Of a stretch of DNA of 45,916 nt, positions 1,779 through 39,021 are shown one piece after another (within the stretch, counting starts at the first letter, position 1; each line of letters starts with the position of its first letter). The notes under the pieces were generated by a model that was not told the DNA's origin, made no database searches, and was given only the letters and a program-made list of their open reading frames with translations. The stretch spans positions 1 through 45,916 of the forward strand of contig DSAQ01000053.1 in the NCBI GenBank assembly GCA_011046395.1, written 5' to 3'. Made by a program: the position numbers and the translations under genes. Source of the DNA: Pseudomonadota bacterium (GTDB taxonomy: Bacteria; Desulfobacterota; QYQD01).

Positions 1779-1850
1779 ATGAACCTGCCGAAGTTTTGCT
1801 CGGCTTTCCGTTCCTTGCTAGAAAAATCGGTAGGCGGCTCATGGGTTGAA

Positions 1851-1926
1851 CATGCATAGCGAGCGAATACGATGTATTTTACCTTGCATACGGAGATTCC
1901 CCGCAGCTTGCTGCGGGGAGCTTCAA
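1851..1926 (+). mobile_element. IS200/IS605-type non-autonomous palindromic element (PATE-like), copy 1, left hairpin deleted
   Basis: Follows TGAA (1847-1850); starts CATGCATAGCGAGCG and ends GATTCCCCGCAGCTTGCTGCGGGGAGCTTCAA. Near-identical to the copies at 7218 and 38911, but lacks 34 nt between TAGCGAGCG direct repeats. Confidence 0.8.
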
Positions 1927-1953
1927 TGTTTTTGGTAACAAATCTACACCGGC

Positions 1954-2538
1954 TCAACCCTCACTGCAAGGAATACAGATAATCTTCCCGCCCTTTACCC
2001 GGGCGCGAGGCTCCATGACCTTTTCTCCACAGATTGCACAGCGCACGCCGGGATATATCTGCGCTTCGGGCGGGACGGGCATGGTCACATGCCTTATCTT
2101 CATCACTTCCTCAGGAGAAGCACTGAGGATAGCCTGAATTTTTCTGGCCTTACGACTCCGGATTCGCGACATAACCTCCTCGGTCTTTTCGCCCGCATGG
2201 AATCTCTCCCAGGCCGCTTTCTCTTCCGGTGTCTCCGGGTAATCGAAGTCTATAGAAAAACGGATTCCTTCACCAGTAGCCCGGCTGTAAAACGTATAAA
2301 CCTGTTTCCCGTAGTCTCTGTGGATGAGGTTCCCCTTGCCAAAGGTGCAGCCGGTCAATACCTGAATAGCATCTACAGCACAGGAATCATTTTCCACAAT
2401 AGCCACGAGTTCTTCATCTTTTGCCTTCCGGCCAAGTTGTTTAATCGCCTCCCTGGCCACCCTGTAACCATAGGCCACCCCCGGACAGATGTGACCGTGA
2501 AAGGCAACGATCCTTTTTAAATCATCGTCATATTCCAT
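1954..2538 (-). CDS. FmdE family protein (formylmethanofuran dehydrogenase subunit E-like) with C-terminal Zn finger
   Basis: FHGHICPG, ENDSCAVDAIQ..TGCTFGKGNL and CAICGE...CIPC motifs. Start moved to ATG 2538 (MEYDDD), which has a GGAGG Shine-Dalgarno upstream. Confidence 0.88.
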   Translation of the reverse strand: MEYDDDLKRIVAFHGHICPGVAYGYRVAREAIKQLGRKAKDEELVAIVENDSCAVDAIQVLTGCTFGKGNLIHRDYGKQVYTFYSRATGEGIRFSIDFDYPETPEEKAAWERFHAGEKTEEVMSRIRSRKARKIQAILSASPEEVMKIRHVTMPVPPEAQIYPGVRCAICGEKVMEPRARVKGGKIICIPCSEG

Positions 2539-2554
2539 CTGAAAATACCCTCCT

Positions 2555-2577
2555 GACAGGCGAGACGCCTGTCCTAC
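2555..2577 (-). repeat. GTAG-family REP palindrome
   Basis: Minus strand reads GTAG-GACAGGCG-TCT-CGCCTGTC: a GTAG tetranucleotide followed by an 8-bp stem, the architecture of RAYT-associated REPs. Confidence 0.6.
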
Positions 2578-2717
2578 TGCTAACGTTACCACCTATGGTA
2601 GTCCGCCGGAGGCGGATCAAGCCAAATCCAAATGACCAGGAACCCCAACATTTGAACTTCGGTACTTTGACATTCCTTTGGGCTTTGGGCTTCAGGCTTT
2701 CAGCCTTGAGCTTCTTT

Positions 2718-4058
2718 TTAGGTCGCTACCAGCTCTCCGACCAAATCATAAGGATGGGCCTCGGTGATCCGGACTGAAGCGATCTGGCCGATTTCCGTCT
2801 GACCGCTTGCGATATAAACCTGCCCGTCTATATCCGGGGCCTGAAAAACAGCCCGGCCCTTTAAGAGAAGTTCTGTTTCATCGCTCAGGCCTTCAACCAG
2901 TACCGGGATTATCTTCCCGACCCGGGAGCGGTTTATGGCCAGAGATATGGCCTGTTGCGCCTTGAGTATTTTTTTCTGCCGCTCCCTTTTTACCTTTTCC
3001 GGCAATTGGCCGGGCAACCGGCCGGCTACCGTCCCATCTTCCGCTGCATAGGGAAAAACCCCTACGTGCTCAAAGCGCGCCTCTTTGACAAGTCGCAGCA
3101 ATTTCTGGAATTCTTCCCCGGTCTCACCGGGAAATCCCGCTATAAGTGATGTGCGGAGCGCAGCCCCGGGTAATTTGCGGCGGATTTTTTCTATCAAGGC
3201 ATAGATATAATCCTGATCGTAAGGGCGGCGCATAAGTCTGAGGATGCGCGGACTTATATGCTGGATGGGAATATCGAGGTATGGGCATATCCGCGGCTCT
3301 GAGGCCATTAATTCCAGGAGTTCATTATCAATAGCAGTAGGATAGAGGTAAAGCAACCGAATCCAGTCTAAACCCGGAATAGTAAGCAGCTTCTTCAGCA
3401 GATCGGTCAGGCCTGTGCCGTCCCCAAGGTCACTGCCATAGGCACTTGTGTCCTGAGCAACCAAGATAAGTTCGCGCACCCCTTCTCCGGCCAGTCGCGA
3501 GGCCTCTGCAAAAACCGAGTCAACCGGACGGCTCCTTAATTTTCCTCTGAGACGCGGGATCAGGCAGAAGCTGCAGCGATGGCCACATCCTTCAGCAATC
3601 TTCAGATAAGCAGTATAAAAAGGCGTGGTGCGTCTCCGCGGGGTATATTCATCCATAATAAAACAGGATCTGCGCGGTAAGGAGAGCGGCTGAACCAGGC
3701 CATCTTTGAGACTGCGCAGCACCTCTCCTATATTCTGGAAACCATCTGTACCGATAAAGACGTCAACTTCAGGAAGGAGTTTTATCAGTTCCTTGCCATA
3801 GCGCTGAGGGAAGCAGCCGGTTACGACCAGGTATCTTAAGCTGCCTCTCTTCTTGTTCTCAGCAAGGGCCAAAATAGTTCCGATGGATTCTTCCACGGCC
3901 GGCTGGATGAAGGCGCACGTATTTATAATTATGACCCCGGCCTCTTTCTCCCTGGAGGTAATCTCATAGCCGGCGGCTATCAGCACGCCCAGCATGACCT
4001 CGCTGTCCACCAGGTTTTTGGGACAGCCGAGACTGGTTATGAAAACTGACTCAGGCAT
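2718..4058 (-). CDS. rimO: Ribosomal protein S12 methylthiotransferase RimO
   Basis: SLGCPKNLVDSE N-terminus, radical-SAM CxxxCxxC (CGHRCSFC), C-terminal TRAM domain with APDIDG. Confidence 0.93.
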   Translation of the reverse strand: MPESVFITSLGCPKNLVDSEVMLGVLIAAGYEITSREKEAGVIIINTCAFIQPAVEESIGTILALAENKKRGSLRYLVVTGCFPQRYGKELIKLLPEVDVFIGTDGFQNIGEVLRSLKDGLVQPLSLPRRSCFIMDEYTPRRRTTPFYTAYLKIAEGCGHRCSFCLIPRLRGKLRSRPVDSVFAEASRLAGEGVRELILVAQDTSAYGSDLGDGTGLTDLLKKLLTIPGLDWIRLLYLYPTAIDNELLELMASEPRICPYLDIPIQHISPRILRLMRRPYDQDYIYALIEKIRRKLPGAALRTSLIAGFPGETGEEFQKLLRLVKEARFEHVGVFPYAAEDGTVAGRLPGQLPEKVKRERQKKILKAQQAISLAINRSRVGKIIPVLVEGLSDETELLLKGRAVFQAPDIDGQVYIASGQTEIGQIASVRITEAHPYDLVGELVAT

Positions 4059-4063
4059 CGGTA

Positions 4064-5029
4064 TTAGTAAAATACAGGGGCAAAGGAGTGAACAGTCTTT
4101 TGATCAATGGTCTGGAACATAATGTAGGCATAGGAGACTATGATAGCCACGGCTGCCAGCACAAAATAAGGCGCTGTCTTCTCCTGTATTCCAATACTCC
4201 CCTCTTCCCACCCTTTATTCTCCCGTAATAAGGAGATGAAATTATATATGACATAACATTCTACTGCAAAAGGCGGGAACCCGAGATAGCCGGCAATGGG
4301 CATCTCAAACACTTTAAACTGTTCCACAAAGGGCACGGTATATACCCACTTGCTCCCGGCCCAGAAATTCCACAGCTCCCAGAATACGCCGCAGATGAAT
4401 CCAGCCGTAAGCAGGAGAGAGAATTTGCGGAGAGAGCCTTGCTGCCAGTCGCGCATTAACGACCGGCCGCCAAAGTGATGATTTATCGGCTCCAGAAGAA
4501 AAACGAAACAGCCCCAGACCAACGGGAAAAAGTATTGCGGCCAGATGACCGGCAGGATGAAAAAGGCCAGGCCTAAAAGTATAAACGGGCCATACCAACT
4601 TTTGGTCGGAGAAAGTGGCCGAATGTGCCTCTTCTTGTAGAGACCGGCTGCCTCCAGAAACTCTGTGGTTTCAAAAAGGCCAGGCAGTACCGTACCATAG
4701 GCTACAAAATAACCCAGCCAGCGCAGCCAGCGGATATCTATTATCCTGACATAATACCAGTTTTTGATATAAATGTTAAAGGCCTCGAAGATGAGCCAGA
4801 TAAAGACTGACCAGGGAACAAGTAAAAGAAACTCGCCAGTACGATCTACGAGAAGGGAATTCCCCTTATATCGATAAACCAGGCCATCGATCAGCAGGAT
4901 GTACGGCCACCAGGCAAAGATGTAAAAAAGCGAATAGACTGGCTCAGTCCTGGAAATAAGCAACATAGAGGAAACAGCCAGAATTATCAATCCCAGGTAG
5001 GCGTGTGCAGGCAATTTAGCCGTAGCCAT
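4064..5029 (-). CDS. Conserved integral membrane protein of unknown function
   Basis: 321 aa, 8-9 TM segments; two related segments (FEAFNIYIKNWYY and WELWNFWAGSKWVY...FEMPIAGYLGFPPF). Ends 5 nt before rimO. Confidence 0.75.
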   Translation of the reverse strand: MATAKLPAHAYLGLIILAVSSMLLISRTEPVYSLFYIFAWWPYILLIDGLVYRYKGNSLLVDRTGEFLLLVPWSVFIWLIFEAFNIYIKNWYYVRIIDIRWLRWLGYFVAYGTVLPGLFETTEFLEAAGLYKKRHIRPLSPTKSWYGPFILLGLAFFILPVIWPQYFFPLVWGCFVFLLEPINHHFGGRSLMRDWQQGSLRKFSLLLTAGFICGVFWELWNFWAGSKWVYTVPFVEQFKVFEMPIAGYLGFPPFAVECYVIYNFISLLRENKGWEEGSIGIQEKTAPYFVLAAVAIIVSYAYIMFQTIDQKTVHSFAPVFY

Positions 5030-5145
5030 GATTTTCCCTTATGTTTTTATGTTTATCTCACCGACCGCAGACTGTCAACGTTTTTGACTAAAAGCGTCAA
5101 AGGCCATGTTGAATGTCTCTCGCTTTTACAGTATATTGCCATATC

Positions 5146-5384
5146 GTAACTACTCAGGTTCAAAGTTCCAAGGTTCACGGTTCAAAGTTAGAGAGCGAAG
5201 AATGCGGAGTTTATCCGGTTTTTGCAACCTGTCTGCCGACAGGCAGGTACGCCAAGCGGTCTTGCACGGAAGTCCAGAGCGAACTCTATGTCGCCTTGGA
5301 TAAAGAGAATGGTTCACCGTGCACCGTTCTGTGTTTTGTTAACCCTGAACCCTGAACTTTGAACCTGACAACCTGAGTAGTTAC
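5146..5384. mobile_element. MITE with GTAACTACTCAGGTT terminal inverted repeats and 8-bp target duplication
   Basis: Perfect 15-bp TIRs at 5146-5160 and 5370-5384; flanks GCCATATC (5138-5145) and GACATATC (5385-5392), 7/8 identical; heptamer arrays inside both ends. Confidence 0.85.
5201..5307 (+). pseudogene. Internal fragment of a four-helix-bundle (23S rRNA IVS / Avd-like, TIGR02436-type) gene, interrupted by a 20-bp palindrome
   Basis: Removing CCTGTCTGCCGACAGGCAGG (5228-5247) restores the frame NAEFIRFLQ-YAKRSCTEVQSELYVALDKE, the recognisable core of that family. Confidence 0.75.
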
Positions 5385-5476
5385 GACATATCAAAATATT
5401 AGGCGTTCCTTACTGAAAGCCGAGGGCTGATCGCTGAATGCTTAACCCATATTATCCTCTTTGGGGGCTCACATAG

Positions 5477-7216
5477 ATGAAGGTTATTCTGGCCAAGAAG
5501 GCGGGGTTTTGCATGGGCGTAAGAAGGGCCATGGATACTGTGCTGGCCGCGGTCAAAGAAAAATCCGCCGCAGGCGGACCTATATCCACTTTTGGCCCTC
5601 TTATTCACAACCAGCAGGTCCTGGATTTGCTGGCTGCTAAAGGCGTCTCCGTGGTCAGGAGCGTCGGTGAGATCAAAGGTGGCACGGTAGTCATTCGGGC
5701 CCATGGCATCCCTCCTCAGCAAAAAGAAGCTATCCTGCAGACCGGCGCACAGGTAATAGATGGCACCTGCCTGCGGGTTATAAAGGTTCAAACCATTATC
5801 CGCCGCTTTGCCCGCAGAGGATATCGAGTAATCATCGTTGGCGACCAAGGGCATCCGGAGGTATTGGGACTCCTTGGTTTTGCCGGAGGCCAGGGCCTCT
5901 TAATAAGCAGCAAGAGCGATATTGCCGGACTCCCCAAACTGGACAAATACATCGTTGTGGCCCAGACTACGCAGGATGAAAACCTTTTTAACGAGATCGC
6001 CTCGGAAATCACCTCAAAATATCCAGGGGGCCAGATATTTAATTCTATCTGTCATTCAACCCACGAACGGCAGGCCGAGGTTCTTGAACTCTGTAAAGAA
6101 GTTGAGGCCGTTGTTGTAGTGGGTGGCAAGGAAAGCGCAAATACAAAAAGACTGGCTCAAATTGCAGAAGAGGCCGGGTTAAAAGCCTACCATATCGAGA
6201 CAGAAAACGATTTGGATTTAAAAAAGATGTCTGGTTTCAGCCGGGTGGCCGTTACGGCCGGGGCATCGACCCCCAACTGGATAATCAACCGGGTTGTAAG
6301 CAAACTGGAAAGCGTAAAGGGTAAACAGGAAAGCACCCTTAAGGCTACGGCATATACATTCTTTCGCTTTCTTCTGGAAAGTAACCTTTATATCAGCCTC
6401 GGGGCAGGATTCCTCGCTTATGCCTCTCTCAAGTTACAGGGAATAAAAGGAACCTTACCATATTTATTCATTGCGGCCGCTTATATCTATGCCGTCCATA
6501 ATTTGAATCATTTTACAGACAAAGAAGCAGACGCCTTTTCCGAACCCGGACGGGCTGTATTCTTCGCTAAACATGAAAGACTTATCCTTTTATTATCTCT
6601 CCTGGCCGCTGCCTTTGCCCTTTCTCTATCTCACTCCCTGGGTCTATTTCCGTTTCTCTTCCTGTTTTTTATTTGCATCCTGGGGACATTGTACGGAGTT
6701 AAAATTATTCCCGATTTTTTAAGCCCTATTATTCCCCTCCGTCGATTGAAAGACATACCAGGATCCCGGACATTATTTATAGCCCTGGCCTGGGCGGCAG
6801 TTGCGGCTTTTTTGCCTGCCTGGAACTCAGGCCAGGGGTTCACGCCGGGCCTTATCGCGGCCTTCCTCTTTGTCCTTGCCTTTGTCTTCGTGCGTTCGGC
6901 GCTCCTGGAAGTATTTGATGTCCAGGCTGACCGTATGTTCGGACGAGAAACACTGCCTATTTTAATCGGAGAGAGGTCAACGCTTACCCTGCTGAAGGGA
7001 CTTATAGCCTTTATGGTTATCCTCCTCGCGGCTTCTTCCTTCCTCGGATATGTTACCACGGTCGGCCTCTGGCTGACCTTACCGGTGTTATCTATGGCCG
7101 GATGCATTGTCCTTTTCGAAAAGAACTACTTGCGACGGGGAGTAAAATTAGAATTCCTGATTGAAAATAACTTTGTTCTGGCCGGCCTGGTAAGCTATCT
7201 ATGGGCGCATTTCTGA
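5477..7216 (+). CDS. ispH: 4-hydroxy-3-methylbut-2-enyl diphosphate reductase IspH fused to a C-terminal UbiA-like prenyltransferase domain
   Basis: IspH motifs GFCMGV, PLIHN, IRAHG, DGTC, HPEV, AQTT, SIC, SANT, GASTP. The last ~290 aa are multi-TM with Asp-rich motifs NHFTDKEAD and EVFDVQAD...GRETLP. Confidence 0.9.
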   Translation: MKVILAKKAGFCMGVRRAMDTVLAAVKEKSAAGGPISTFGPLIHNQQVLDLLAAKGVSVVRSVGEIKGGTVVIRAHGIPPQQKEAILQTGAQVIDGTCLRVIKVQTIIRRFARRGYRVIIVGDQGHPEVLGLLGFAGGQGLLISSKSDIAGLPKLDKYIVVAQTTQDENLFNEIASEITSKYPGGQIFNSICHSTHERQAEVLELCKEVEAVVVVGGKESANTKRLAQIAEEAGLKAYHIETENDLDLKKMSGFSRVAVTAGASTPNWIINRVVSKLESVKGKQESTLKATAYTFFRFLLESNLYISLGAGFLAYASLKLQGIKGTLPYLFIAAAYIYAVHNLNHFTDKEADAFSEPGRAVFFAKHERLILLLSLLAAAFALSLSHSLGLFPFLFLFFICILGTLYGVKIIPDFLSPIIPLRRLKDIPGSRTLFIALAWAAVAAFLPAWNSGQGFTPGLIAAFLFVLAFVFVRSALLEVFDVQADRMFGRETLPILIGERSTLTLLKGLIAFMVILLAASSFLGYVTTVGLWLTLPVLSMAGCIVLFEKNYLRRGVKLEFLIENNFVLAGLVSYLWAHF

Positions 7217-7217
7217 A

Positions 7218-7327
7218 CATGCATAGCGAGCGCTAACCCCGCTGCTTGCAGCGGGGTTAGCGAGCGAATACGATGTATTTTACCTTGCATACGGAGATTC
7301 CCCGTAGCTTGCTGCGGGGAGCTTCAA
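7218..7327 (+). mobile_element. IS200/IS605-type non-autonomous palindromic element, copy 2
   Basis: Follows TGAA (7214-7217), which contains the ispH TGA stop. Two hairpins, CCCCGCTGC-TT-GCAGCGGGG and CCCCGTAGC-TT-GCTGCGGGG; ends TCAA. Confidence 0.82.
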
Positions 7328-7344
7328 TTGCTTACCGGATGCCT

Positions 7345-7363
7345 GACTTTTTACGAAGCCACC
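7345..7363 (-). repeat. Solitary end of the GATG..TCGTAAAAAGTC MITE family
   Basis: Reverse complement GGTGGCTTCGTAAAAAGTC matches the ends at 10502, 15295/15427 and 45803. Confidence 0.6.
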
Positions 7364-7364
7364 T

Positions 7365-7559
7365 TTAATGATACACTCCGGTTTCATTGTCGGATGACAG
7401 AAAATAATAGATCTGCAGCACATGTGTATAGCAGACCCGCTCTCTCCAATTAGCGCAGCGCTGCTTTATACTATCCCATTGGAAAAATACGCAATCGACA
7501 CAGGGGGATTCGCCTTCGGCTGTCTTAATCATCCGTTGTCCCTTAGCTACATCCATCAT
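7365..7559 (-). CDS. Small Cys-rich hypothetical protein
   Basis: 64 aa with CxxC...C...C; AGGTGA Shine-Dalgarno-like motif 7 nt upstream of the ATG. No recognised family. Confidence 0.4.
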   Translation of the reverse strand: MMDVAKGQRMIKTAEGESPCVDCVFFQWDSIKQRCANWRERVCYTHVLQIYYFLSSDNETGVYH

Positions 7560-7823
7560 GTCATATTCACCTGTTAAATGATATGCATCAAGGTATTCCG
7601 CAGTCTCTTATTTTTATTATCGGACAAGACGGTCCTCCCCTTGAAAATTTCAGTACAAGTTGACCAACTATTGCTTATATGAAGCAATTACTTTTATTTC
7701 TATAAAGAGTTCTTGCCTTGCCCTTTAAAAAATGATAGTTATTTTTTATTATTTATGTACGATTAAAATAATACCGATTTATTGAATTATATTTAATAAC
7801 ATAGGTAAAAAGGAGGAAGACAA

Positions 7824-8405
7824 ATGGCAAAGAGAAATTTGTACTATAGTCTGTCTTTTTTATTGGCAATAATAGCGATTTTTCTTATGTCTTGCTGTGC
7901 CAAGAGAGTCAGCGTCTCTGAAGAAGAAGCGGCTAAAACACCAGAGACCGTTGCGCCCGCACCAAAACCAGTAGAGACCGTTGCACCTAAACCCATGGTT
8001 GAAGAAGCTATGCCCACCACCGAGGCGCTTAAAGAAGAAGTCCTCGCGATGGCAGAGGGCCGAACCTCGGCTGGTCTGTTACCGGTTTACTTTGATTTTG
8101 ATAAGTATAATATGCGTAGTGACCAGACCTCAAGACTGGATCAGAATGCCAAATGGCTGAAGAAAAATCCTACGGCCAAAATACGCATCGAGGGTAATTG
8201 CGACGAAAGAGGCTCAAACGAATATAACCTGGCCCTGGGCGAGCGCAGGGCAAACAGCGTCCAAGAGTATTTAACAAACATGGGCATTGCTCCTGAGCGC
8301 ATAGAAACCCTAAGCTACGGGGAAGAAAGACCGCTTTGTTTTGAGCACGACGAAGAATGCTGGGGTAAAAATAGACGTGCTGACCTTGTCACGATAAGAA
8401 AATAG
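7824..8405 (+). CDS. pal: Peptidoglycan-associated lipoprotein (OmpA-like C-terminal domain)
   Basis: AGGAGG SD, signal peptide with lipobox-like Cys, Pro/Glu-rich linker, VYFDFDK, IEGNCDERGSNEYNLALGERRA, SYGEERP, NRRA. Confidence 0.93.
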   Translation: MAKRNLYYSLSFLLAIIAIFLMSCCAKRVSVSEEEAAKTPETVAPAPKPVETVAPKPMVEEAMPTTEALKEEVLAMAEGRTSAGLLPVYFDFDKYNMRSDQTSRLDQNAKWLKKNPTAKIRIEGNCDERGSNEYNLALGERRANSVQEYLTNMGIAPERIETLSYGEERPLCFEHDEECWGKNRRADLVTIRK

Positions 8406-8441
8406 CTGCATATTAAAAATAAGAAAGGATAAGAACAATAA

Positions 8442-8969
8442 ATGAAAAAGGGACTACTAATAGGGATAATGATTGTCCTCATGTTTGCCGGGCAATCGTG
8501 GGCGGAGGAAAAAACTAAAATAGCTATTCTGAACATACAAAAAGTACTGGCGGAGTCTGAAGTAGGCAAAAAGACTAAAGATGACTTATCCTTAAGATTT
8601 AAGGCTCTGCAGGAAAAAATAAACAAAAAACAGGATGAGTTGGAAAAATTCAGGCAGGACTTAGAGAAAAAAAGCGCTGTCCTCAGCGCTGAAGCCAAAG
8701 ACGAAAAAGAGAGAGAATACCAGAAACAATACCGGGAATTTAAACAGCTTTACGAGGATGCCCAATATGAGATGCAGCAAGCTGAACGCAAGGCAACTGA
8801 GCCTTTAATAAAGAGCCTGCAAACGATTCTGGAAAAATTTGGCAAAGAGCAGGGGTACACGCTGATATTAGACCCCGTAAGGAGTGGTGTTGTTTATGCT
8901 GCGGAAGAAATCGACATCACGGATAAGATCCTCGACCTCTTCAATAAGGGCACTAAGGTAAAAAAATAA
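8442..8969 (+). CDS. skp: OmpH/Skp periplasmic chaperone
   Basis: Signal peptide, KIAILNIQKVL, long coiled coil, GYTLILD...VVYA...DITD. Confidence 0.9.
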   Translation: MKKGLLIGIMIVLMFAGQSWAEEKTKIAILNIQKVLAESEVGKKTKDDLSLRFKALQEKINKKQDELEKFRQDLEKKSAVLSAEAKDEKEREYQKQYREFKQLYEDAQYEMQQAERKATEPLIKSLQTILEKFGKEQGYTLILDPVRSGVVYAAEEIDITDKILDLFNKGTKVKK

Positions 8970-8994
8970 ATCGATTGAAAATCGCAAATCTAAT

Positions 8995-9025
8995 AAAAAA
9001 GGGCGGGCGTCACCCGCCCTTTTTT
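8995..9025. terminator. Bidirectional intrinsic terminator between convergent skp and mgtE
   Basis: A6-GGGCGGG-CGTCA-CCCGCCC-T6. Confidence 0.85.
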
Positions 9026-10376
9026 ATTTAAACAGGATAAATCGAGCCACCTGGAAATAGGTGAACACCCCCAGCACATCGACCATTGTTGTAATAAAAG
9101 GGGCGGACATGATGGCCGGATCAAGTTTTAAACGCGAGAAGACAAAAGGCAGCATACCTCCCGCAAGACTGGCCAAAGTCGAGATGACCACGAGACTCAA
9201 ACCAACGGTGAGAGAAACAAGCCAATTACCTTGCAACCAGTGGGCCCAGACTGTCACTATTGTTCCTAACATAACGCCCAATAAACAGCCGATGCCCACT
9301 TCCCGCGACAGCAGGCCCCAATAATTCCTTGCCGATACCTCCCTTAGCGCCAGACCCCTGACCATGACCGTGGAAGACTGCGCACCTATGTTGCCTCCGC
9401 TCCCTATTAAAAGCGGTATAAAAGCCGCCAGCGCAACGACAGACTTTAAGGTATCCGCTTGGCCCATGATAATATTGCCGGTAAGTGTGTTGGTTATGAG
9501 TAGTATCAGAAGCCAGCCTACCCGCCGGCCTACAACAGAAAAAACCCGGGCCTTAAAATATCCCGTATCCGGGACTTCCACACCACCCATACGGTAAATA
9601 TCTTCGGTAACCTCTTCTTCCATAACGTCCATGACGTCATCGACCGTTATTATCCCCACCAGCCTATCTTCTTTATCCACTACCGGCACAGCCAGGAGGT
9701 CGTACTTTTGCAGGTCACGCGCCACTTTTTCCTGGTCGTCCTCTGTCCTTACTGATATGGCGTCGGAGTCCATAATATCGCCGATGATGGCTGTAGGCGG
9801 CTTAATAACCAGGAGCTTGAGAGAAACAATACCCACCAGCCGTCTTTTTTCGTCAACCACATAACAGTAATAGACGGTTTCCTTTTCCAAACCTACGCGT
9901 CTGATCTTGTCCAGGGCCTCAGCTACGGTCATCTCCCTCTTTAGAGCGACGTATTCTGGCGTCATAATACGCCCGGCGGTGTCCTCCGGATAGCCAAGCA
10001 ATGTACTGGTATTTTTACGTTCCTGCGGCGGCAGTAACTGCACCAACCGTTTGGCCACTACAGCCGGCACCTCGTCTAAAAGCCTGGCCAGGTCGTCCGG
10101 CGACATCTCTTCAAGAATATCCTTGACCTTACTGTCTTGAAAATTTTGCAAAAGGTGTTGCTGGTCCGGAGAGCTGAGATGTTCAAAGACATCAACGGCC
10201 AGCTCTTTGTCCAACAACCTGAAGAGAAGCACCTGTTCTTTCGGTGGCTGGTGGGTGATCAGCTCGGCAATATCCTGGGCATTGTTGGCTGAAAGTATCT
10301 GTTTAATGGCCGCAAACCGCCGTTCAGCCAATAATGGCTCTACTTCTTCCCGTAGATCTTTATAGAGCTCTTCCAT
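9024..10376 (-). CDS. mgtE: Magnesium transporter MgtE
   Basis: MgtE N-domain, YPEDTAGRIMT, CBS pair, PLLIGSGGNIGAQ, DPAIMSAPFITTMVD. Confidence 0.95.
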   Translation of the reverse strand: MEELYKDLREEVEPLLAERRFAAIKQILSANNAQDIAELITHQPPKEQVLLFRLLDKELAVDVFEHLSSPDQQHLLQNFQDSKVKDILEEMSPDDLARLLDEVPAVVAKRLVQLLPPQERKNTSTLLGYPEDTAGRIMTPEYVALKREMTVAEALDKIRRVGLEKETVYYCYVVDEKRRLVGIVSLKLLVIKPPTAIIGDIMDSDAISVRTEDDQEKVARDLQKYDLLAVPVVDKEDRLVGIITVDDVMDVMEEEVTEDIYRMGGVEVPDTGYFKARVFSVVGRRVGWLLILLITNTLTGNIIMGQADTLKSVVALAAFIPLLIGSGGNIGAQSSTVMVRGLALREVSARNYWGLLSREVGIGCLLGVMLGTIVTVWAHWLQGNWLVSLTVGLSLVVISTLASLAGGMLPFVFSRLKLDPAIMSAPFITTMVDVLGVFTYFQVARFILFK

Positions 10377-10501
10377 GGCCAGCCTCCACTATGATTTTAT
10401 CCGGGCATCCTGTCCGGCAAAACCGACTACAAATCAAAGTTGAAGGTTTTACCCCAAAACATCTGAATGTCAAACATATTTTAGAGCTATTTTTGAACTT
10501 T

Positions 10502-10520
10502 GACGCCTTCGTAAAAGGTC
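10502..10520 (+). repeat. Solitary end of the GATG..TCGTAAAAAGTC MITE family
   Basis: AACTTT|GACGCCTTCGTAAAAGGTC; same 6-nt left flank (AACTTT) as the copy at 45803. Confidence 0.55.
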
Positions 10521-10535
10521 CGGAGGACTAAAGGC

Positions 10536-13415: not shown

Positions 13416-13453
13416 CTTTATCCCTCCTTAAGTCCTCTAAAACCCCGTAACTA

Positions 13454-15294: not shown

Positions 15295-15427
15295 GATGAC
15301 TTCGTAAGAAGTAAGATGTTACCGCAGAGATCGCTGAGAACGCCGAGATAATATATTGAATAGTTTATATTTTTTCTCTGCGGGCTCTGCGTGCTCAGCG
15401 GTGAAAAGGCTTTTTTACGAAATCATC
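15295..15427. mobile_element. MITE with GATGA(C/T)TTCGTAA ends enclosing a 9-nt-periodic hairpin
   Basis: Left end GATGACTTCGTAAGAAG; right end reverse complement GATGATTTCGTAAAAAAG. Inner arms 15321-15348 and 15375-15402 are built from CGCAGAGnn-like units. Flanks AGCTTT/AGCCCT. Confidence 0.7.
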
Positions 15428-15615: not shown

Positions 15616-15646
15616 AACGATTGTTTCCGGACGGAAACCAGGCGAC

Positions 15647-29384: not shown

Positions 29385-29411
29385 TCTTGAACCTTCATTA
29401 AAACCGCTCCA

Positions 29412-31250: not shown

Positions 31251-31308
31251 CTGAAAATCCCCCACACCCCCCTTTTCCAAAGGGGGGTGTGGGGGGATTC
31301 GGGGGATT
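31251..31308. repeat. G/C-run palindromic element with 8-bp target duplication at the treZ start
   Basis: AATCCCCCACACCCCCCTT-TTCCA-AAGGGGGGTGTGGGGGGATT-type hairpin flanked by ATTCTCAT at both 31243-31250 and 31309-31316. Confidence 0.78.
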
Positions 31309-31352
31309 ATTCTCATTGTCCCTTGTCCGTCGCAGACAGATGTGTATTTCAG

Positions 31353-31430
31353 GTATCCGTTCACCGTTATCAGTTCACCGTTGTCCGTAAGAACCTGAAA
31401 AGCTTTTTTCGGTGAACAGTGAACGGTTAC
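31353..31430. mobile_element. MITE of the GTA(A/T)CCGTTCAC family with 8-bp target duplication
   Basis: TIRs GTATCCGTTCACCGTT / GTAACCGTTCACTGTT (14/16); flanks TATTTCAG (31345-31352) and TATTTCAT (31431-31438). Confidence 0.8.
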
Positions 31431-31434
31431 TATT

Positions 31435-33354
31435 TCATTTTCCTTCGCTCTTAAAAAAGACAACGCTGAGCGGTGGTAAGATTAGAGATAAAGAATGGTA
31501 TTGCCCATGCGCCGGAACCGGGGCTGCTTCAACGCCCCCGGAATTTCCCCAATTGCCTCCCCAGTATATCCGGGCATCGCTGTTTAAAACCTCTCTCCAG
31601 AAGCCTCCCCGTGGAACCCCGACCCTGTAATTCTGTCTGGGAACCGGGGTGAGGTTACAGACTACGAGGATAATATCGTCTGTACTTTTACCTCTTCGCG
31701 TATAACTTATGACGCTCCCTTCCCAATCAGAGCTGTCTATCCAGGCAAAGCCTTGATTGTTAAAATCCAGTTCGTACAGGGCCGGCTCAGCCCTATAAAA
31801 GTGGTTCAGGTCTTTGACCCACCTTTGTAACCCGTGATGGGAGGGATATTCGAGAACATGCCATTCCAGACTCTCCTCGTGATTCCACTCTTTCCACTGA
31901 CCAAATTCGTCTCCCATAAACAATAGCTTCTTTCCGGGGTGGCCGTACATGTATCCGAATAATAGTCTGAGGTTTGCATACCTCTGCCACTCATCCCCGG
32001 GCATCTTTCCGGACAGCGCGCCTTTTCCATGAACTACCTCGTCGTGGGAAAGAGGAAGGACGAAGTTCTCGGAAAAGGCATACCAGATGCTAAAGGTAAG
32101 CTGGTTGTGATGATACTTTCTAAAGACAGGATCGTTAGAAAAATAATCCAGCGTATCGTGCATCCAGCCCATGTTCCACTTCATGCCAAATCCCAGCCCG
32201 CCCACATATGCCGGCCTGGAGACCATAGGCCAGGCCGTGGACTCTTCCGCTATGGTCTGAACGTCGGGATAATTTTCGTAAACCGCCTCATTAAACCTCC
32301 TTATGAACCTTACGGCCTCTATATTTTCGTTCCCTCCATACTCGTTTGGTATCCAATCTCCGCCCGTTCTCGCATAGTCCAGGTAAAGCATAGAGGCCAC
32401 GGCATCCACCCTCAACCCATCAATATGGTATTTGCCAAGCCAGAAGAGGGCGCTGCTGATAAGAAAATTTTTCACCTCGTTTCGCCCATAGTTAAAGATG
32501 GCGCTTTTCCAATCAGGGTGAAATCCTTTTCTAGGGTCTTCGTGTTCATAAACGTGCGTGCCATCAAAATAGACGAGTCCGTGCTCGTCATTTGGAAAAT
32601 GGGAAGGTACCCAATCAAGGATAATGGCTATCCCGTTTTGATGGAGGTGATCAACAAAGTACATGAAATCCTGAGGCGTTCCGAACCGGCTGGATGGCGC
32701 AAAGTAGCCTGTGGTCTGGTACCCCCAGGAGCCGTAGAACGGGTGTTCCATTATTGGTAATAGTTCGATATGGGTGAAACCCATCTCCTTCATATAATCC
32801 GCCAGGTAATGGGCCATCTCCCGGTAGGTAAGGAACCGGTTACCCTCTTCGGGGACCCGCCGCCAGGATCCGAGGTGTAATTCGTAGATAGCAAAGGGGG
32901 AGTCAAGCCCGTTACGTTTATACCGATTCTGCATCCATTCGGCATCGTTCCATTCATAGCCTAGCTCCCATACCACAGTAGCGGTTTTGGGTGAAAGCTC
33001 CCACAGATAGGCATAGGGATCGCCCTTGTCCACTTTATAATCGTTATAATTTGAGACGATGTGATACTTATAAAGCGCGCCCTGGCTGACCCCGGAAACA
33101 AAACCCTCCCAGATGCCGGAGGCGTCCTCTCTTGACTTTAAGGGATGGGTTTCCGGAACCCATGCGTTGAACTCACCGACCACGGATACCCTGTTGGCAT
33201 TGGGCGCCCAGACGGCAAAGTAAGTCCCTCGGGTGTCACCCACAGACATTACGTGTGCCCCCAGTTTGTCATACAGTTGAAAGTGATTCCCCTCTTTGAA
33301 GAGATAAATATCATGCTCTGTGAATAGGCTAACATCGTATCGTACGCTTCCCAT
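31435..33354 (-). CDS. glgB: 1,4-alpha-glucan branching enzyme
   Basis: [57 protein letters not shown]. Confidence 0.96.
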
Positions 33355-33414
33355 TTTACCTCCCTGTCTTTTTCAATCAAAAATACCCTTATACCTAAAT
33401 TGAGCGATTTAAAA

Positions 33415-33484
33415 ACCACAGAGTGCACAGAGAAAGAGGGTCTTTTCTTTTATTTATCATGTTCTTCTCTGTGTTCTCTGTGGT
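33415..33484. repeat. ACCACAGAG-type inverted repeat between treS and glgB
   Basis: 20-bp arms at 33415-33434 and 33465-33484 (18/20 complementary), 9-nt periodic; related to the arms inside the 15295 MITE and to 45708-45727. Confidence 0.72.
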
Positions 33485-33501
33485 GAATCGCCTTTTTTAG
33501 G

Positions 33502-36500
33502 TTATATACCACTTTTTAAGATACACTGTACGCCCCTGACGGGAATAATAATCCAATCAGGACGATTATTCAGTTCATAACCAAGTTCATAAATCGCTTT
33601 GTCCAAAAGGAAGGCATGGAGGAGGGTTTCGAGCTCTCCTTTTTCATGCGGGATGAAAGGAGCTTCTCCACAGGTCTCCAGATAGGAATGGAGGAATATC
33701 CCGCTCACATAGTGATACCACAGGTCAGCCCATGGCTCCAGCAGAGGCTTATCTTTGGCTCGCAGCGATGCATCCAGAAAAAGGGCATTATAGGCCGCAT
33801 AATGAAAGGAGCGAATCATGCCCGCCACATCCCGAAGAGGCGAACGCTTCAATCTCCTTTCACTGAGTGTCCGTGCTGGTTCACCCTCGAAGTCTATAAT
33901 CACGAAATCCTTTCCGGTAAAAAGAACCTGGCCCAGGTGATAATCTCCGTGAATACGAATCTTCATCGCGGAGATCTTTTCCGGCAAAATTTTCTGGAAG
34001 CGGGCCAGAATCTCTTGCTCAGAAGCCAGAATTGCAGATGCGTCCTTTTGCACACCTTCGCGCAGTCTTTTGAGGTTTTTCCCCAGAGATTGTAGCACCC
34101 GCCGCGCTAAGCTCCGCATAGACTGATATACAGATCTTTGATAAAGCGTTGAGAAGGGTTCAGGGGCAAAATCTGCATCCCCGGATACGGATGATAAGGC
34201 GAGATGCAATTCTGCGGTTCGCTTTCCCAGGAGGCGAGCCGTTTCGAAATAAACGCCGCCTATTAATTCCTGCACCAGCGGTGGAATGGCGGAAAATTCG
34301 ATGCCCAGCAGGGAGGTAGGTATTTCCGGCACATGCCGAATCTCTCGTCTCCTGGACAGAATGCGCTCGAAATATTCGCGCACTGCGTCCAGTGTGTACG
34401 TCCAGGCATCGCCTTGATTGGGGACAAAACCCTGCAAGAGGCCGATTAATATCGGCTCCGAGCCCTGATGCCGGTACTCAATGGCACCGGCAAAAGGGGG
34501 AACCTGGGAAAAGTCCGTCTTTTCCGTGAGGAATCTCAAGATTTCAAGGTCAGGATTTACTCCTTCTTCGAGCCGCCGGCAGAGCTTTAAGAAAAACTTA
34601 TCCTCATAAAGGACGGAGGTATTGCTTTGTTCGGCCTTGAGTACTTGAGAGGTCAATAGCAGCGCCTTATCAGACAGCAGGCTGCGGAATTCCCTACCCG
34701 GGAAAGCGACAAGCTCTCCCCTCTTGCCCTTTATCCGTTTTCTTTGCGCAATCATGGCCAGAAGACTCTCACGGACCTTCTGGTCATAAATGCCGTCGCA
34801 GAGAATCCCCTCTTCATCCCCGATATGCAAGCATGCGATTACGGCCTGCGGAAATTCTTGTGTAATCTGCTTGGCCTTAGCCCCTTGGATGTATGAGACA
34901 GCAAGTGAATATATCTCCATCGTACCCTCTGTATAACCCACCTCCAACAAGACTAATTGAGTCACATCGGCATTTTTAGAAATCGGTATACTTTCCAGGA
35001 TCTTAACCTGCCGGATCGTCCGTGCCTTTCCGGCAAACCAACGACAACCTCTTAGGTAACCCGGAAGGATTTTTTTCTCCAGTATTTCCCGGGCATCATC
35101 CTCCAGAACCGTCTCCCAGTTCCCCTCTACGCGCAGCCCCGGAATGGCTATTTTTTCACAGACGCTGACAGGCTCTCGTCTCTCTTTTAGTAAAAGCCAA
35201 TAGTGATCGTAGGGCCCGAATGTGAGTACATAAGGTGACTTTTTTATGATCGGGAATTTATTTTGACTGAAGACCTCTTCCGGCACAAATCCGGCATATT
35301 GTGAAAGGTCGAGTCCGCCCACTTGAGAAAACCTGGACAGGTTTATAACCACGAGTATATTTTCATCCTCATACCGGCGGATAAATGCCAGTACCTTCGG
35401 GTTATTGGGCGAAAGGAATTCTATGGTTCCCCGACCAAAGGCCTTAAAGCGTTTCCGCATACCTATGACGCGTTTCATCCACCAGAGGAGTGAAGATAAG
35501 TTCCGTTCGTGGTTCTCCACGTTTACTGACTCGTAGTGATACTCAGGGTCGATAATCACCGGCAGATACAGCTTCTGGGGATTCACCTTAGAAAAGCCGG
35601 CATTCCTGTCCGGACTCCACTGCATTGGTGTTCTAACGCCATTCCGGTCACCGAGATAATAGTTGTCACCCATGCCAATCTCGTCGCCATAGTAAATAAT
35701 GGGTGTACCCGGAAGAGAAAAGAGGAGGATATTCATAAGTTCTATCTTCCTTCGATTATTACCGACCAGTGGCGCCAGACGCCGGCGAATACCCAGGTTG
35801 ATTCTGGCGCGCGGGTCTCTGGCATAGACCCGGTACATATAGTCACGCTCTTCATCTGTAACCATCTCCAGGGTTAATTCATCGTGATTACGAAGGAATA
35901 GCGCCCACTGAGCGGATTCAGGTACAGCGGGAGTTTGTTCGAGGATGTCTATAATCGGATAATGATCCTCCATCCAAAGCGACATAAACATCCTGGGCAT
36001 AAGGGGGAAATGAAAGGCCATGTGGCATTCATCACCGTCACCAAAATAGGCCGTGGCATCTTCCGGCCACTGGTTGGCCTCTGCCAGAAGCATTCGGTTT
36101 TTAAACTTACCATCTATATAAGCCCTTAATTTCTTTAGGAAGGCGTACGTCTCGGGCAGGTTTTCGCAGTTGGTTCCCTCCCGTTCATATAAATAGGGGA
36201 TAGCGTCCAATCGCAGACCGTCTACCCCCATGTCAAACCAGAAATCAATCACCCGGAACAGCGCCTTTTGTACCTGGGGATTGTCAAAATTCAGGTCCGG
36301 TTGATGGGAATAAAAACGGTGCCAGTAATACGCCTTGGTCATGGGATCCCAGGCCCAGTTTGAAGGTTCAAAGTCTTTAAAGATGATCCGGGCGTCCTTG
36401 TATTTTTCCGGGGTATCACTCCAGACGTAAAAGTTTCGCCATGTCGAACCCGGCTTCGCCTGTCTGGCTCGTTGAAACCACAAATGCTGATCAGAGGTGT

Positions 36501-36834
36501 GGTTTAAAACAAGCTCCGTAATAACCCGCATGCCGCGTCGATGGGCCTGCCTCAGAAGCTCCCGAAAATCTCGCAGACTGCCATAATCTTGATGAACATT
36601 GTAATAGTCCGCAATGTCATACCCATCATCCCTGAGGGGAGACGGATAAAAAGGCAAAAGCCATAGAGCTGTCACCCCCAGATGTTCGAGGTAATCGAGT
36701 TTCTCTATAAGCCCTCGAAAGTCACCTATGCCATCTCCGTTGCTGTCGTAAAACGTCTTTATGTGGAGTTCATAGATGATGGCATCCTTGTACCATAAAG
36801 GATCGTCATCGAGATATACCTCTTTCTTAGGCAT
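33502..36834 (-). CDS. treS: Trehalose synthase fused to maltokinase (TreS-Pep2/Mak)
   Basis: GH13 TreS motifs (SPLRDDGYD, RLDAIPYL, FLRNHDELTLEMV, DRNGVRTPMQW) followed by kinase motifs (EQSNTS, RIHGDYHLGQVL, IDFEGEP, YELNNRPDW). Confidence 0.95.
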   Translation of the reverse strand: MPKKEVYLDDDPLWYKDAIIYELHIKTFYDSNGDGIGDFRGLIEKLDYLEHLGVTALWLLPFYPSPLRDDGYDIADYYNVHQDYGSLRDFRELLRQAHRRGMRVITELVLNHTSDQHLWFQRARQAKPGSTWRNFYVWSDTPEKYKDARIIFKDFEPSNWAWDPMTKAYYWHRFYSHQPDLNFDNPQVQKALFRVIDFWFDMGVDGLRLDAIPYLYEREGTNCENLPETYAFLKKLRAYIDGKFKNRMLLAEANQWPEDATAYFGDGDECHMAFHFPLMPRMFMSLWMEDHYPIIDILEQTPAVPESAQWALFLRNHDELTLEMVTDEERDYMYRVYARDPRARINLGIRRRLAPLVGNNRRKIELMNILLFSLPGTPIIYYGDEIGMGDNYYLGDRNGVRTPMQWSPDRNAGFSKVNPQKLYLPVIIDPEYHYESVNVENHERNLSSLLWWMKRVIGMRKRFKAFGRGTIEFLSPNNPKVLAFIRRYEDENILVVINLSRFSQVGGLDLSQYAGFVPEEVFSQNKFPIIKKSPYVLTFGPYDHYWLLLKERREPVSVCEKIAIPGLRVEGNWETVLEDDAREILEKKILPGYLRGCRWFAGKARTIRQVKILESIPISKNADVTQLVLLEVGYTEGTMEIYSLAVSYIQGAKAKQITQEFPQAVIACLHIGDEEGILCDGIYDQKVRESLLAMIAQRKRIKGKRGELVAFPGREFRSLLSDKALLLTSQVLKAEQSNTSVLYEDKFFLKLCRRLEEGVNPDLEILRFLTEKTDFSQVPPFAGAIEYRHQGSEPILIGLLQGFVPNQGDAWTYTLDAVREYFERILSRRREIRHVPEIPTSLLGIEFSAIPPLVQELIGGVYFETARLLGKRTAELHLALSSVSGDADFAPEPFSTLYQRSVYQSMRSLARRVLQSLGKNLKRLREGVQKDASAILASEQEILARFQKILPEKISAMKIRIHGDYHLGQVLFTGKDFVIIDFEGEPARTLSERRLKRSPLRDVAGMIRSFHYAAYNALFLDASLRAKDKPLLEPWADLWYHYVSGIFLHSYLETCGEAPFIPHEKGELETLLHAFLLDKAIYELGYELNNRPDWIIIPVRGVQCILKSGI

Positions 36835-36846
36835 TAACCTATCTCC

Positions 36847-38850
36847 TCACATAAAATAGTCGAAGTCCGTCTCTCTTTTCAGCCTTTTCCTGACTCTCAA
36901 AATATTCGCCGGAAGCACGTGAGGATTAAGCTCTACATAATTCCGTTCGCCCTGCCAGATATACTTATCATCGCTCAAAAGGTCGTGCACCAGATATGGT
37001 TGGTCAGGATCTATGCCTAACTCATGAATAGGAACTTTCAGCCACCCGGACTGGGTATGATACGGATCAAGATTTACCACCACAAGTATAATGTTGGAGA
37101 AGTCCTCGGTCGCCTTGGCGTAAAAGAGGAGATAATCATTATCCACTTCGTAAAACTTCAGGATCCACGGAATCTGAAGGGCAGGATTTTCCCTCCTTAT
37201 CCTGTTCACTCTCGCGATGAAGTCTCTGAGGTTCCCAGGCGCATCCCAATCCCAGTGTTTCAGTTCATATTTTTCTGAATGGAGATATTCCTCCTTTCCA
37301 GGTACCGCGTCGTTAACGCACAGTTCAAAAGCCGGCCCATAGATGCCGTAACTGGATGAAAGGGTTGCCGCCAGGGCCAGCCTTATGGTAAAGGCTGAGC
37401 GCCCTCCATATTGCAGTTGCTCCGGGAGGATATCCGGCGTATTAGGCCAGAAGTTGGGCCGGAAGTATTCTCTCACCTCGGTTTTCATAAGCTCCGTAAG
37501 GTATTCCATGAATTCTCTTTTTGTATTCCGCCAGGTAAAGTAGGTATATGACTGGGTAAATCCCAGTTTGGCCAGGTAGTACATGACCTTCGGCCTGGTA
37601 AACGCCTCGGCGAGGAAAATCACCTCCGGATAATCCCTTTTGATCTCCTTTATCAGCCATTCCCAGAACGGAAACGCCTTGGTATGCGGGTTATCGACCC
37701 GGAATATCCGTACCCCTTTACCAATCCAGCAAAGAACCACACTCTTCAGTTCCTCCCACAGTTCCGGCCAGTGTTCGGTTTCAAAGTTAAGCGGAAAAAT
37801 GTCTTCATACTTTTTGGGAGGGTTTTCCGCATACTGGACTGTCCCATCCGGACGCCACCGAAACCATTCCGGGTGTTTTTTGACATAGGGATGATCCGGA
37901 GAGCACTGAAAGGCCAGGTCGACGGCAACTTCTATCCCATGCTCGCCAGCTTTGGCTACCAGCCTCTCAAAATCCTCGATGGTTCCAAGTTCGGGATGAA
38001 CAGCCTTGTGCCCGCCTTCATCCGAGCCAATGGCCCAGGGACTCCCCACATCGGCCGGGTCAGCCTGGGGAAGGTTATTCTTCCCTTTACGCTTGGTCTT
38101 CCCTATAGGATGAATGGGCGGGAGATAGAGCACATCAAAGCCCATTCTCGCTATCTCAGGGATGATCGTCTCACAATCCCTGAATGTTCCATGTTCACCA
38201 GACCTTGAAGGACATGACCTCGGAAACAATTCATACCACGTGCTGAAAACTGCCTTATCCCGGTCCACGACCACAACCAGTTCCTTTTCATAACGTGTAG
38301 CCATCCCCTTATCCGGATATCTATCCATGAGTTTACCAATTTCTTTACCCAGGATAAATGTCACGGTCTTTTCTATGTCCGTTTCTTTTCTTAAGATGTT
38401 AATATATTCCAATAGCTTCTTTCGGTCGTTTTTCGAAGTCTTCTTCACGGACTTTTCAAGGTGTTCAATCCCTACAAGTACATCCACCCGTATATCCTGA
38501 CCGGCCTCAAATTTCTTCTTGAGATCCTTCTGCCAGGTCCTGAACTGATCAACCCAGCCCTCGATAGCGTAAAGGTAAGGTCCCAGTTCCTCAACGATGA
38601 ACTGTCCCATCCAACGGTCGTTCTCAATAAACTTCATGGGAACGTCCTGCCATCCTTTATCGCCTTGCCGTTTATAGAGAAGTCTGGCTGAAATAGAATC
38701 ATGCCCATCACCAAAGATATCGGCCGTCACTATAACCTTTTCTCCGACAACCCTCTTAATAGGGAAAAAACCACCGTTTATCTCAGGCCTCACATTCTCT
38801 ATCACTACTCTCTTTCTTCCCCTATCCGCCATCATAGATGACCCATCCAT
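36847..38850 (-). CDS. glgE: Alpha-1,4-glucan:maltose-1-phosphate maltosyltransferase
   Basis: WYELFPRS, YLPPIHPIG, GSPWAIG, YAENPPKKYED, FRVDNPHTK, FWPNTPDIL; AAGGGG SD. Confidence 0.95.
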   Translation of the reverse strand: MDGSSMMADRGRKRVVIENVRPEINGGFFPIKRVVGEKVIVTADIFGDGHDSISARLLYKRQGDKGWQDVPMKFIENDRWMGQFIVEELGPYLYAIEGWVDQFRTWQKDLKKKFEAGQDIRVDVLVGIEHLEKSVKKTSKNDRKKLLEYINILRKETDIEKTVTFILGKEIGKLMDRYPDKGMATRYEKELVVVVDRDKAVFSTWYELFPRSCPSRSGEHGTFRDCETIIPEIARMGFDVLYLPPIHPIGKTKRKGKNNLPQADPADVGSPWAIGSDEGGHKAVHPELGTIEDFERLVAKAGEHGIEVAVDLAFQCSPDHPYVKKHPEWFRWRPDGTVQYAENPPKKYEDIFPLNFETEHWPELWEELKSVVLCWIGKGVRIFRVDNPHTKAFPFWEWLIKEIKRDYPEVIFLAEAFTRPKVMYYLAKLGFTQSYTYFTWRNTKREFMEYLTELMKTEVREYFRPNFWPNTPDILPEQLQYGGRSAFTIRLALAATLSSSYGIYGPAFELCVNDAVPGKEEYLHSEKYELKHWDWDAPGNLRDFIARVNRIRRENPALQIPWILKFYEVDNDYLLFYAKATEDFSNIILVVVNLDPYHTQSGWLKVPIHELGIDPDQPYLVHDLLSDDKYIWQGERNYVELNPHVLPANILRVRKRLKRETDFDYFM

Positions 38851-38910
38851 TTTGATCCCCTTTAAGTGGTAATTATCATAAGAAAAGAACCTTTACCTAA
38901 GGCATTTGAA

Positions 38911-39021
38911 CATGCATAGCGAGCGCATTCCCCGCTGCTTGCAGCGGGGTTAGCGAGCGAATACGATGCATTTTACCTTGCATACGGAGATTCCCCCACA
39001 GCTTGCTGCGGGGAGCTTCAA
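38911..39021 (+). mobile_element. IS200/IS605-type non-autonomous palindromic element, copy 3
   Basis: Follows TGAA (38907-38910); CATT-CCCCGCTGCTTGCAGCGGGG left hairpin; slightly mutated right hairpin; ends TCAA. Lies between divergent glgE and glgM. Confidence 0.82.

Follow-up and report, generated by a model that had tools for sequence, protein, structure and literature searches.

IS608 and the palindrome-associated transposable elements (PATEs) are the closest described systems to the small repeats considered here, three copies of which lie in a 45,916-nt stretch of DNA (the window; positions 1 to 45,916 of contig DSAQ01000053.1, assembly GCA_011046395.1) from a Pseudomonadota bacterium of the Desulfobacterota lineage QYQD01. 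In the accounts drawn on here (PMC3201880, PMC5934647) of IS608 from Helicobacter pylori, the paradigm of the IS200/IS605 family, the element inserts 3' of TTAC, which is kept in the left flank; its left cut lies 19 nt 5' of a hairpin foot, its right cut, at TCAA, lies 10 nt 3' of a foot, and the sites are read by 4-nt guides directly 5' of each foot, AAAG and GAAT. At the left end A+16 pairs with T-3 and A+17 with T-4, guide base 1 thus meeting site base 2 and guide base 2 meeting site base 1, and at the right end the pairs are C-3:G-35 and T-4:A-34. The bases 3' of the right hairpin, A-10 and G-9, form triplets.

PATEs were described in Haloquadratum walsbyi, HqIRS46 being an example (Dyall-Smith et al. 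2011, PMC3119063), and the features given in that description are largely those of the present repeats. The likeness covers the lack of inverted termini, similar near-terminal palindromes at both ends, the lack of a target duplication, a targeting sequence of 4-5 nt on the 5' side and an end-to-palindrome distance that is longer at the 5' than at the 3' end. It extends to terminal-only forms (52 bp in Haloquadratum) produced by repeat-mediated deletion between the two palindromes, to other small repeats inserted within palindromes, and to the scarcity of intact IS200-type transposases in the host. As described there, a helper TnpA with matching ends does not define PATEs, whose hosts are likewise without intact IS200 transposases. 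The present element differs from the Haloquadratum PATEs in belonging to a bacterial lineage of sediment and groundwater metagenomes, in its sequence and in its target, TGAA, as well as in the small size of its full unit (about 110 nt), for which no parent insertion sequence with the same ends is known. Additionally, Meers et al. (2023, PMC10055086) reported PATE-like elements of the ISGst family in Geobacillus stearothermophilus, which are gene-less, share the end architecture of IS200/IS605 and are predicted to be mobilised in trans by one TnpA. In that report such elements often carry an omega-RNA scaffold and occur beside a known tnpA, whereas the present element has no room for a scaffold and is accompanied by neither a TnpB nor an identified TnpA.

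The repeats are, in all likelihood, a family of protein-less IS200/IS605-type transposons, that is PATEs, which a Y1 TnpA would move in trans. This agrees with the original prediction of a non-autonomous, PATE-like single-stranded DNA transposon as far as ends, target and guides are concerned; the matching TnpA that it supposed was not found in the genomes and metagenome loci searched.

Anatomy of the repeats and their DNA guides

The complete unit of about 110 nt consists, in order, of a 15-nt left terminus, the left guide CATT, a hairpin of 9 bp with a TT loop, a 40-nt linker, the right guide GATT, a near-identical hairpin, AGCT and TCAA. Its left side reads TGAA followed by CATGCATAGCGAGCGCATT and the hairpin, and its right side reads GATT, the hairpin and AGCTTCAA. 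Comparison of the left end, CATGCATAGCGAGCG, with the reverse-complemented right end, TTGAAGCTCCCC, reveals no similarity, so the element is without terminal inverted repeats, and the subterminal hairpins at the two ends are alike and in the same orientation. The left hairpin is CCCCGCTGC-TT-GCAGCGGGG and the right hairpin, in copy 1, is CCCCGCAGC-TT-GCTGCGGGG; they differ by a compensatory T-A/A-T swap, as had been noticed earlier, and the two types are interchangeable in some copies. With lengths of 47-142 nt, the elements are too short for a transposase gene.

The geometry of the left end coincides with that of IS608. The distance from cut to foot is 19 nt in both, and positions +16 to +19 are therefore CATT. 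When CATT is set against TGAA by the IS608 scheme, C pairs with G, A with T and the final T with the last A, and GATT pairs likewise with TCAA; inspection of the two IS608 pairs shows that guide base 4 and site base 4 match there as well. The sole difference between the guides (C versus G at position 1) mirrors the sole difference between the sites (G versus C at position 2). The IS608 rule had been taken to predict CAnT for TGAA and GAnT for TCAA, and CATT and GATT comply. Among the hairpins of the source genome that have a GCTTGC apex and these feet, 28 are preceded by CATT and 23 by GATT, and the right guide is GATT in 51 of 54 metagenome copies. IS608 and the repeats further have in common that they insert 3' of a tetranucleotide retained by the left flank, that they end on the right in TCAA, and that AG adjoins the right hairpin on its 3' side (A-10 and G-9 in IS608). 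They differ in that IS608 carries tnpA and tnpB and targets TTAC, whereas the element is gene-less and targets TGAA.

The three window copies, all on the plus strand, lie exactly where they had first been placed, each after TGAA and each ending in TCAA, with GATT at the foot of the right hairpin in all three and CATT at the foot of the left hairpin in copy 3. Copy 1 (1851..1926) follows a TGAA at 1847..1850, identified as target and left cleavage tetranucleotide from the sequence and the flank logo. It is a 76-nt short form without left guide or left hairpin, comprising the 15-nt left terminus, the guide GATT (1895-1898), the right hairpin (1899-1918), AGCT and TCAA (1923-1926), and is predicted to be immobile. 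Copy 2 (7218..7327) is a 110-nt two-hairpin form whose TGAA (7214..7217) supplies the TGA stop codon of the open reading frame (ORF) at 5477-7216, a single plus-strand ORF of 579 aa in which a LytB/IspH domain is joined to a UbiA prenyltransferase domain. Its left terminus (7218-7232) is followed at the guide position by CTAA (7233-7236), an atypical replacement of CATT that lengthens the palindrome, and by the left hairpin (7237-7256); on the right side stand GATT (7296-7299), a hairpin with a G-T wobble (CCCCGTAGC; 7300-7319) and TCAA (7324-7327). Copy 3 (38911..39021), preceded by TGAA at 38907..38910, is a 111-nt two-hairpin form with left terminus at 38911-38925, CATT at 38926-38929, left hairpin at 38930-38949, GATT at 38989-38992, an imperfect right hairpin with an extra C and a mismatch (CCCCCACAGC; 38993-39013), AGCT at 39014-39017 and TCAA at 39018-39021. 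The same site is also occupied in genome G004 (locus L008; G, C and L numbers denote genomes, contigs and loci). The genes flanking the window copies are ordinary: a Na/H exchanger, FmdE, the LytB-UbiA fusion, OmpA, GlgE and a glycosyltransferase.

Target, unoccupied sites and distribution

The flanks of other copies bear out TGAA as the target, both in the source genome and in metagenomes. The four bases before the left terminus in the source genome are T in 51, G in 52, A in 52 and A in 52 of 53 copies, and T stands at -5 in 30 of the 53. Directly after the right end, T occurs in 49 of 68 copies, against a genome-wide background in which T follows TGAA at 20.1% of 25,796 sites. Metagenomes were scanned with a 27-nt pattern of the left end whose first base is the G of TGAA, the preceding T being left out; the scan returned 87 stretches, 80 of which were fetched, holding 82 copies, 69 of them with distinct flanks. 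Among these 69, T stands at -4 in 68, the end is TCAA in 67, and T is found at +1 in 57. Such a pattern of flanks and ends is far beyond chance.

Empty sites in which TGAA is joined directly to the right flank, as had been anticipated, were found. Altogether 65 copies at loci of sister species (26 and 39) were compared with the source genome, where both flanks lie on one contig in 20 cases: 14 of these sites are unoccupied, five are occupied in both genomes, and one holds 41 unrelated bases. Additionally, the copy 3 site is unoccupied in G003, where it reads cattTGAAtttgtgg, and copy 2 is without a counterpart in G005. These two, together with the 14 empty sites, give 16 comparisons of occupied and unoccupied alleles, seven of them made with paralogous copies of other multi-copy host sequences; TGAA stands exactly once at the junction in 11, and a duplication is found in none. 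The allele seen at the copy 3 site in G003 recurs in a contig of 3382 nt from public run X9, which bridges the site and skips exactly 111 nt (38908 to 39020, with a 2-nt ambiguity of placement). Contigs of runs X1, X2 and X4 end inside the repeat and do not bridge this site, their uncovered parts being uninformative. Insertions are thus polymorphic between species and between populations. Abutted right-left junctions, the signature of circles or tandems, number zero in the source genome, and one near-tandem with 5 nt between the copies occurs in a metagenome locus. The anatomy, the target, the absence of a duplication, the insertion polymorphism and the guide/site complementarity can all be read directly from the sequences compared.

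Other repeats seem to be preferred as insertion sites, often where the context is cattTGAAttt. An unoccupied copy of a multi-copy host sequence (...gagataatatatTGAAtagttta..., match at 15360) stands at 15340..15385 of the window on the plus strand and carries the element in G003 and G001; to judge from these alleles, it is a preferred but empty target. The host sequence (...gagataacatatTGAAtagtttacag...) has at least five copies, at about 15340-15385 of the window and at C83:8932, C75:157, C151:2220 and C2:49255. A second multi-copy sequence (C176, C86, C9) has element insertions at two positions 60 nt apart in G005.

BLAST searches of the source genome and its relatives, which had been proposed as a check, revealed about 50 copies in the genome and occurrence throughout the family. 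The source assembly (2.73 Mb in 261 contigs, 98% complete) gave 60 pieces at 57 loci with copy 3 as query. The 15-nt left terminus has 54 matches there, of which 35 belong to two-hairpin forms (mostly 110-122 nt), 10 to short forms without the left hairpin and three to single-hairpin forms; the remaining six have no right end within 260 nt and comprise two contig ends, two truncated copies, one composite single-hairpin copy and one spurious match. Seventeen copies of exactly 110 nt have a median pairwise identity of 95% and include two identical pairs. The element is present in all seven other genomes of the family, six of which are further species of the same genus and the seventh the one species of the sister genus. 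It is virtually lacking in 33 genomes from the phylum's other families, the exceptions being one 59-nt single-hairpin copy (G026) and short hairpin matches. Outside ORFs of at least 120 aa lie 47 of 49 copies. Targeting of stop codons, as at copy 2, was considered and rejected, the TGA of TGAA being the stop of the upstream ORF in three of 49 copies, by rough estimate no more than chance.

Shorter forms accompany the full unit. What the short form has lost is precisely the segment that two TAGCGAGCG repeats enclose, and at the copy 2 locus the full form of the source genome corresponds to a 76-nt form in G001 and G006 and to no element in G005. In the single-hairpin forms of 47-55 nt (three in the source genome and, among the 69 metagenome copies, 11), one hairpin connects the left guide with the right tail, and the crossover varies: it leaves the whole right hairpin, the whole left hairpin, or a left arm with a right arm. 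Both the 76-nt and the 47-55-nt forms are deletion products between internal direct repeats, and they are probably not able to move alone. In some copies another hairpin takes the place of a hairpin top or interrupts it. The left-hairpin top may hold an extra insert of 22-45 nt (CATCCAGGTC...GGCGGGC), or the right-hairpin top may be replaced by GTCCGCC-N4-GGCGGRC; such copies lie at C114:5607-5752, C46:15948 and C8:15694 of the source genome and at metagenome loci L152, L157, L166, L194 and L196. The inner hairpin GTCCGCC...GGCGGAC has only 17 copies, seven of them inside this element, and on that low number the idea that it forms a separate mobile family was set aside.

Hairpins with the GCTTGC apex also occur on other small elements with other guide/site pairs, namely GATA/TCAT, CATA/TGAT and AATT/TTTA, in families whose boundaries were inferred from few copies, without unoccupied sites. 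GATA as right guide with TCAT 4 nt after the foot is found in an element of G021, in IS200 copies at G021:C119 and G007:C36, and in a solo copy on contig C80 of the source genome. In G013, six of six right ends have CATA/TGAT, on a hairpin with an extrahelical T, and three of three left ends have the guide AATT, 19 nt from TTTA. Guide base 3 is T in all the sibling families, and all these pairs obey the IS608 rule. The sibling mini-elements lie at L129, L131 and L133-L136 in G013, at L125, L127, L130 and L137 in G021, and at L065 (G007:C93); G013 has at least 16 hairpin matches.

Proposed movement, candidate enzymes and rival explanations

By analogy with IS608, from which the single-strand chemistry and the kind of enzyme are carried over, a Y1 (HUH) TnpA dimer supplied in trans would bind both hairpins on the single-stranded top strand. 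CATT would pair with the flanking TGAA and GATT with the terminal TCAA, and the strand would be cut after each tetranucleotide. The element would leave as a single-stranded circle, with the donor resealed seamlessly, and CATT would then pick a new TGAA, preferably one with T next, the insertion taking place 3' of TGAA.

A tnpA(-tnpB) element with the same ends, which it had earlier been suggested to look for, was found neither in the source genome nor in its seven relatives nor in the 80 metagenome loci. The lineage does have Y1 transposases, as the original prediction required; the hairpins that come closest belong to two degraded IS200 copies of other genera. When the eight family genomes were searched with Pfam Y1_Tnp, 36 rows resulted, and the scan of loci covered 20. 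No intact copy of the degraded G007 insertion sequence was detected by DNA search in nine genomes of the order. A search with the left end of G001:C23 returned only another truncated copy and a different mini-family, and Y1 searches in G013, G021 and G026 yielded one degraded IS200 with similar ends. Since repeats are often lost from such assemblies, the absence of a helper is weak evidence. As a separate observation, locus L053 of a sister species (G002:C206) holds an IS605-type element, in which the 3' end of tnpA is followed by a 491-aa TnpB ORF; it has no counterpart in the source genome.

Several observations weigh against a PATE family moved by a Y1 TnpA. The source assembly has only two Y1_Tnp matches, a 313-aa Y1+HTH protein on contig C14 and a 100-aa fragment; tblastn with a canonical TnpA of one sister species found no canonical IS200 TnpA in it, and the PF07282 profile and tblastn with a sister-species TnpB found no TnpB. 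The canonical TnpAs of sister species (G005:C60, G001:C11, G001:C23) are associated with different hairpins, the two IS200 copies most alike in hairpins and right-end geometry (G007, G021) are frameshifted or deleted, and a TnpA adjoins none of the 82 metagenome copies. Foot and right cut are 8 nt apart rather than the 10 nt described for IS608, guide base 3 is T rather than the A that IS608 is reported to insert into the protein, and the hairpins are perfect, whereas those of IS608 are described as imperfect with an extrahelical T. In the G021/G007 sibling family the left-end guide fits the inferred flank in two of five cases only. The fold of the whole element as single-stranded DNA is not exceptional (z = -1.63), the individual hairpins being obvious, and the strand bias to be expected of lagging-strand targeting did not emerge as significant: on short contigs, GC skew is positive around 32 of 54 copies (p = 0.22). 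Finally, five of the 16 unoccupied alleles are not TGAA, reading GGAA, CGAA (twice), TGGA and TGAG. At C195:2511 and C112:4192, compared with L092 and L123, the empty alleles read GGAAc-att and CGAAc-att and the occupied ones TGAA[element]t-att, in flanks that are 93-96% identical; there, the alleles disagree at the first base of the target and again at the one that follows the element, which may reflect ascertainment, with insertion needing TGAA and then T.

A different origin would make the element a REP/REPIN-type repeat kept by a domesticated REP-associated Y1 transposase (RAYT), the enzyme being the 313-aa protein of C14. Likeness exists in the short hairpin repeats, their place in intergenic DNA and the link to a Y1 HUH enzyme. 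The C14 protein, with its DnaA-C-like tail, is the only intact HUH Y1 protein of the assembly and is RAYT-like, reaching 74.9 bits with NF047646, just below the NCBI RAYT cut-off of 80; its gene has a diverged copy of the element about 520 bp upstream, and Y1+HTH paralogues (32-39% identity) occur in all eight family genomes. Yet C14 is the only one of the 20 Y1 loci with a copy within about 1.5 kb, and another ORF stands between. The orthologue is limited to G003 (87% identity) and a pseudogene in G004, and the gene was rejected as the partner of the element because only one of seven relatives has the orthologue. Typical REPs bear a conserved, GTAG-like tetranucleotide as their 5' head, lie beside the RAYT gene and are arranged as inverted doublets, whereas the element has the heads CATT and GATT, does neither of the latter, and can be assigned definite ends, a target and empty sites. 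REPINs are a better match for a separate inverted doublet with a GTAG head, present at three loci, and the classical 180-aa RAYT of sister species is absent from the source assembly. Because of the missing head motif, the direct hairpins, the lack of RAYT flanking and the separate GTAG doublet family, a REP/RAYT origin is decidedly unlikely. The GTAG-headed doublets (GTAGGGGCAGGGCTTGCCCTGCCC ... GGGCGCAGCAAGCAGCGCCCCTAC), which look like classical REPINs, lie at C2:45314, C29:19987 and C144:2069 of the source genome; the 180-aa classical RAYT-like gene is present in G001, G003, G006 and G007. A perfect 24-bp inverted repeat, seen by eye, brackets the C14 Y1+HTH gene (L001, 912-935 and 1907-1930), and one of its arms is the start of the neighbouring gene, which we take to be phosphomannomutase-like.

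The repeats could also be structured non-coding RNAs or regulatory hairpins, such as terminators, small RNAs or a TnpB/IscB guide RNA on a PATE, and their strong hairpins and intergenic position would suit such a role, as would the resemblance of the right end to omega-RNA 3' ends proposed earlier. That resemblance gained no support: TnpB is missing from the genome, Rfam gives no match at E up to 1 apart from two chance matches far below threshold, and the whole element measures 47-142 nt, with only 40 nt between the hairpins to hold a scaffold (IscB was not searched for). Neither hairpin is followed by a T-run, orientation with respect to neighbouring genes is random (45 co-oriented, 42 opposed), and the insertion polymorphism between close populations fits a mobile element. 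With no Rfam match, random gene orientation and polymorphic insertions, a structured RNA is therefore a very unlikely explanation. A conventional miniature inverted-repeat transposable element (MITE), with a DDE transposase as its enzyme and a duplication of the AA in its TGAA target, would find room in the boundaries: because AA precedes both junctions, they slide by up to 2 nt, and the sequence alone is therefore formally compatible with a 2-bp AA duplication, a further point against the PATE reading. But a DDE-type MITE is hardly credible, because the element has no inverted termini; of 69 copies, 67 retain the whole of TCAA with its TC, such a model gives no function to the guide/site pairing or to the 19 nt between cut and foot, and no matching DDE element was seen.

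Place among PATEs and meaning for the lineage

The family is well supported as a new member of the PATE class, small and with an unusually clean guide/site logic; it is a clear new example of an already described class and not a new kind of system. It poses the puzzle of which enzyme moves a PATE where there is no matching transposase, and the same puzzle was noted for Haloquadratum in the 2011 description. There is a slender chance that the family is mobile without a cognate IS200 transposase, a heterologous Y1 enzyme reading the shape of the hairpin foot and the element supplying its own DNA guides; the Y1+HTH RAYT-like paralogues would be candidates. If so, even the 47-nt single-hairpin forms might move, and they would be the smallest mobile DNA described.

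For annotation, it is useful to know that a family with about 50 copies in each genome interrupts assemblies and looks like regulatory hairpins. In the related elements, the five guide/site pairs co-vary as the code predicts, guide base 3 and the first site base do not vary, and four of the pairs have A as third site base; the family thereby serves as a naturally occurring test case for the DNA-guide code of IS608 in a lineage of uncultured bacteria.

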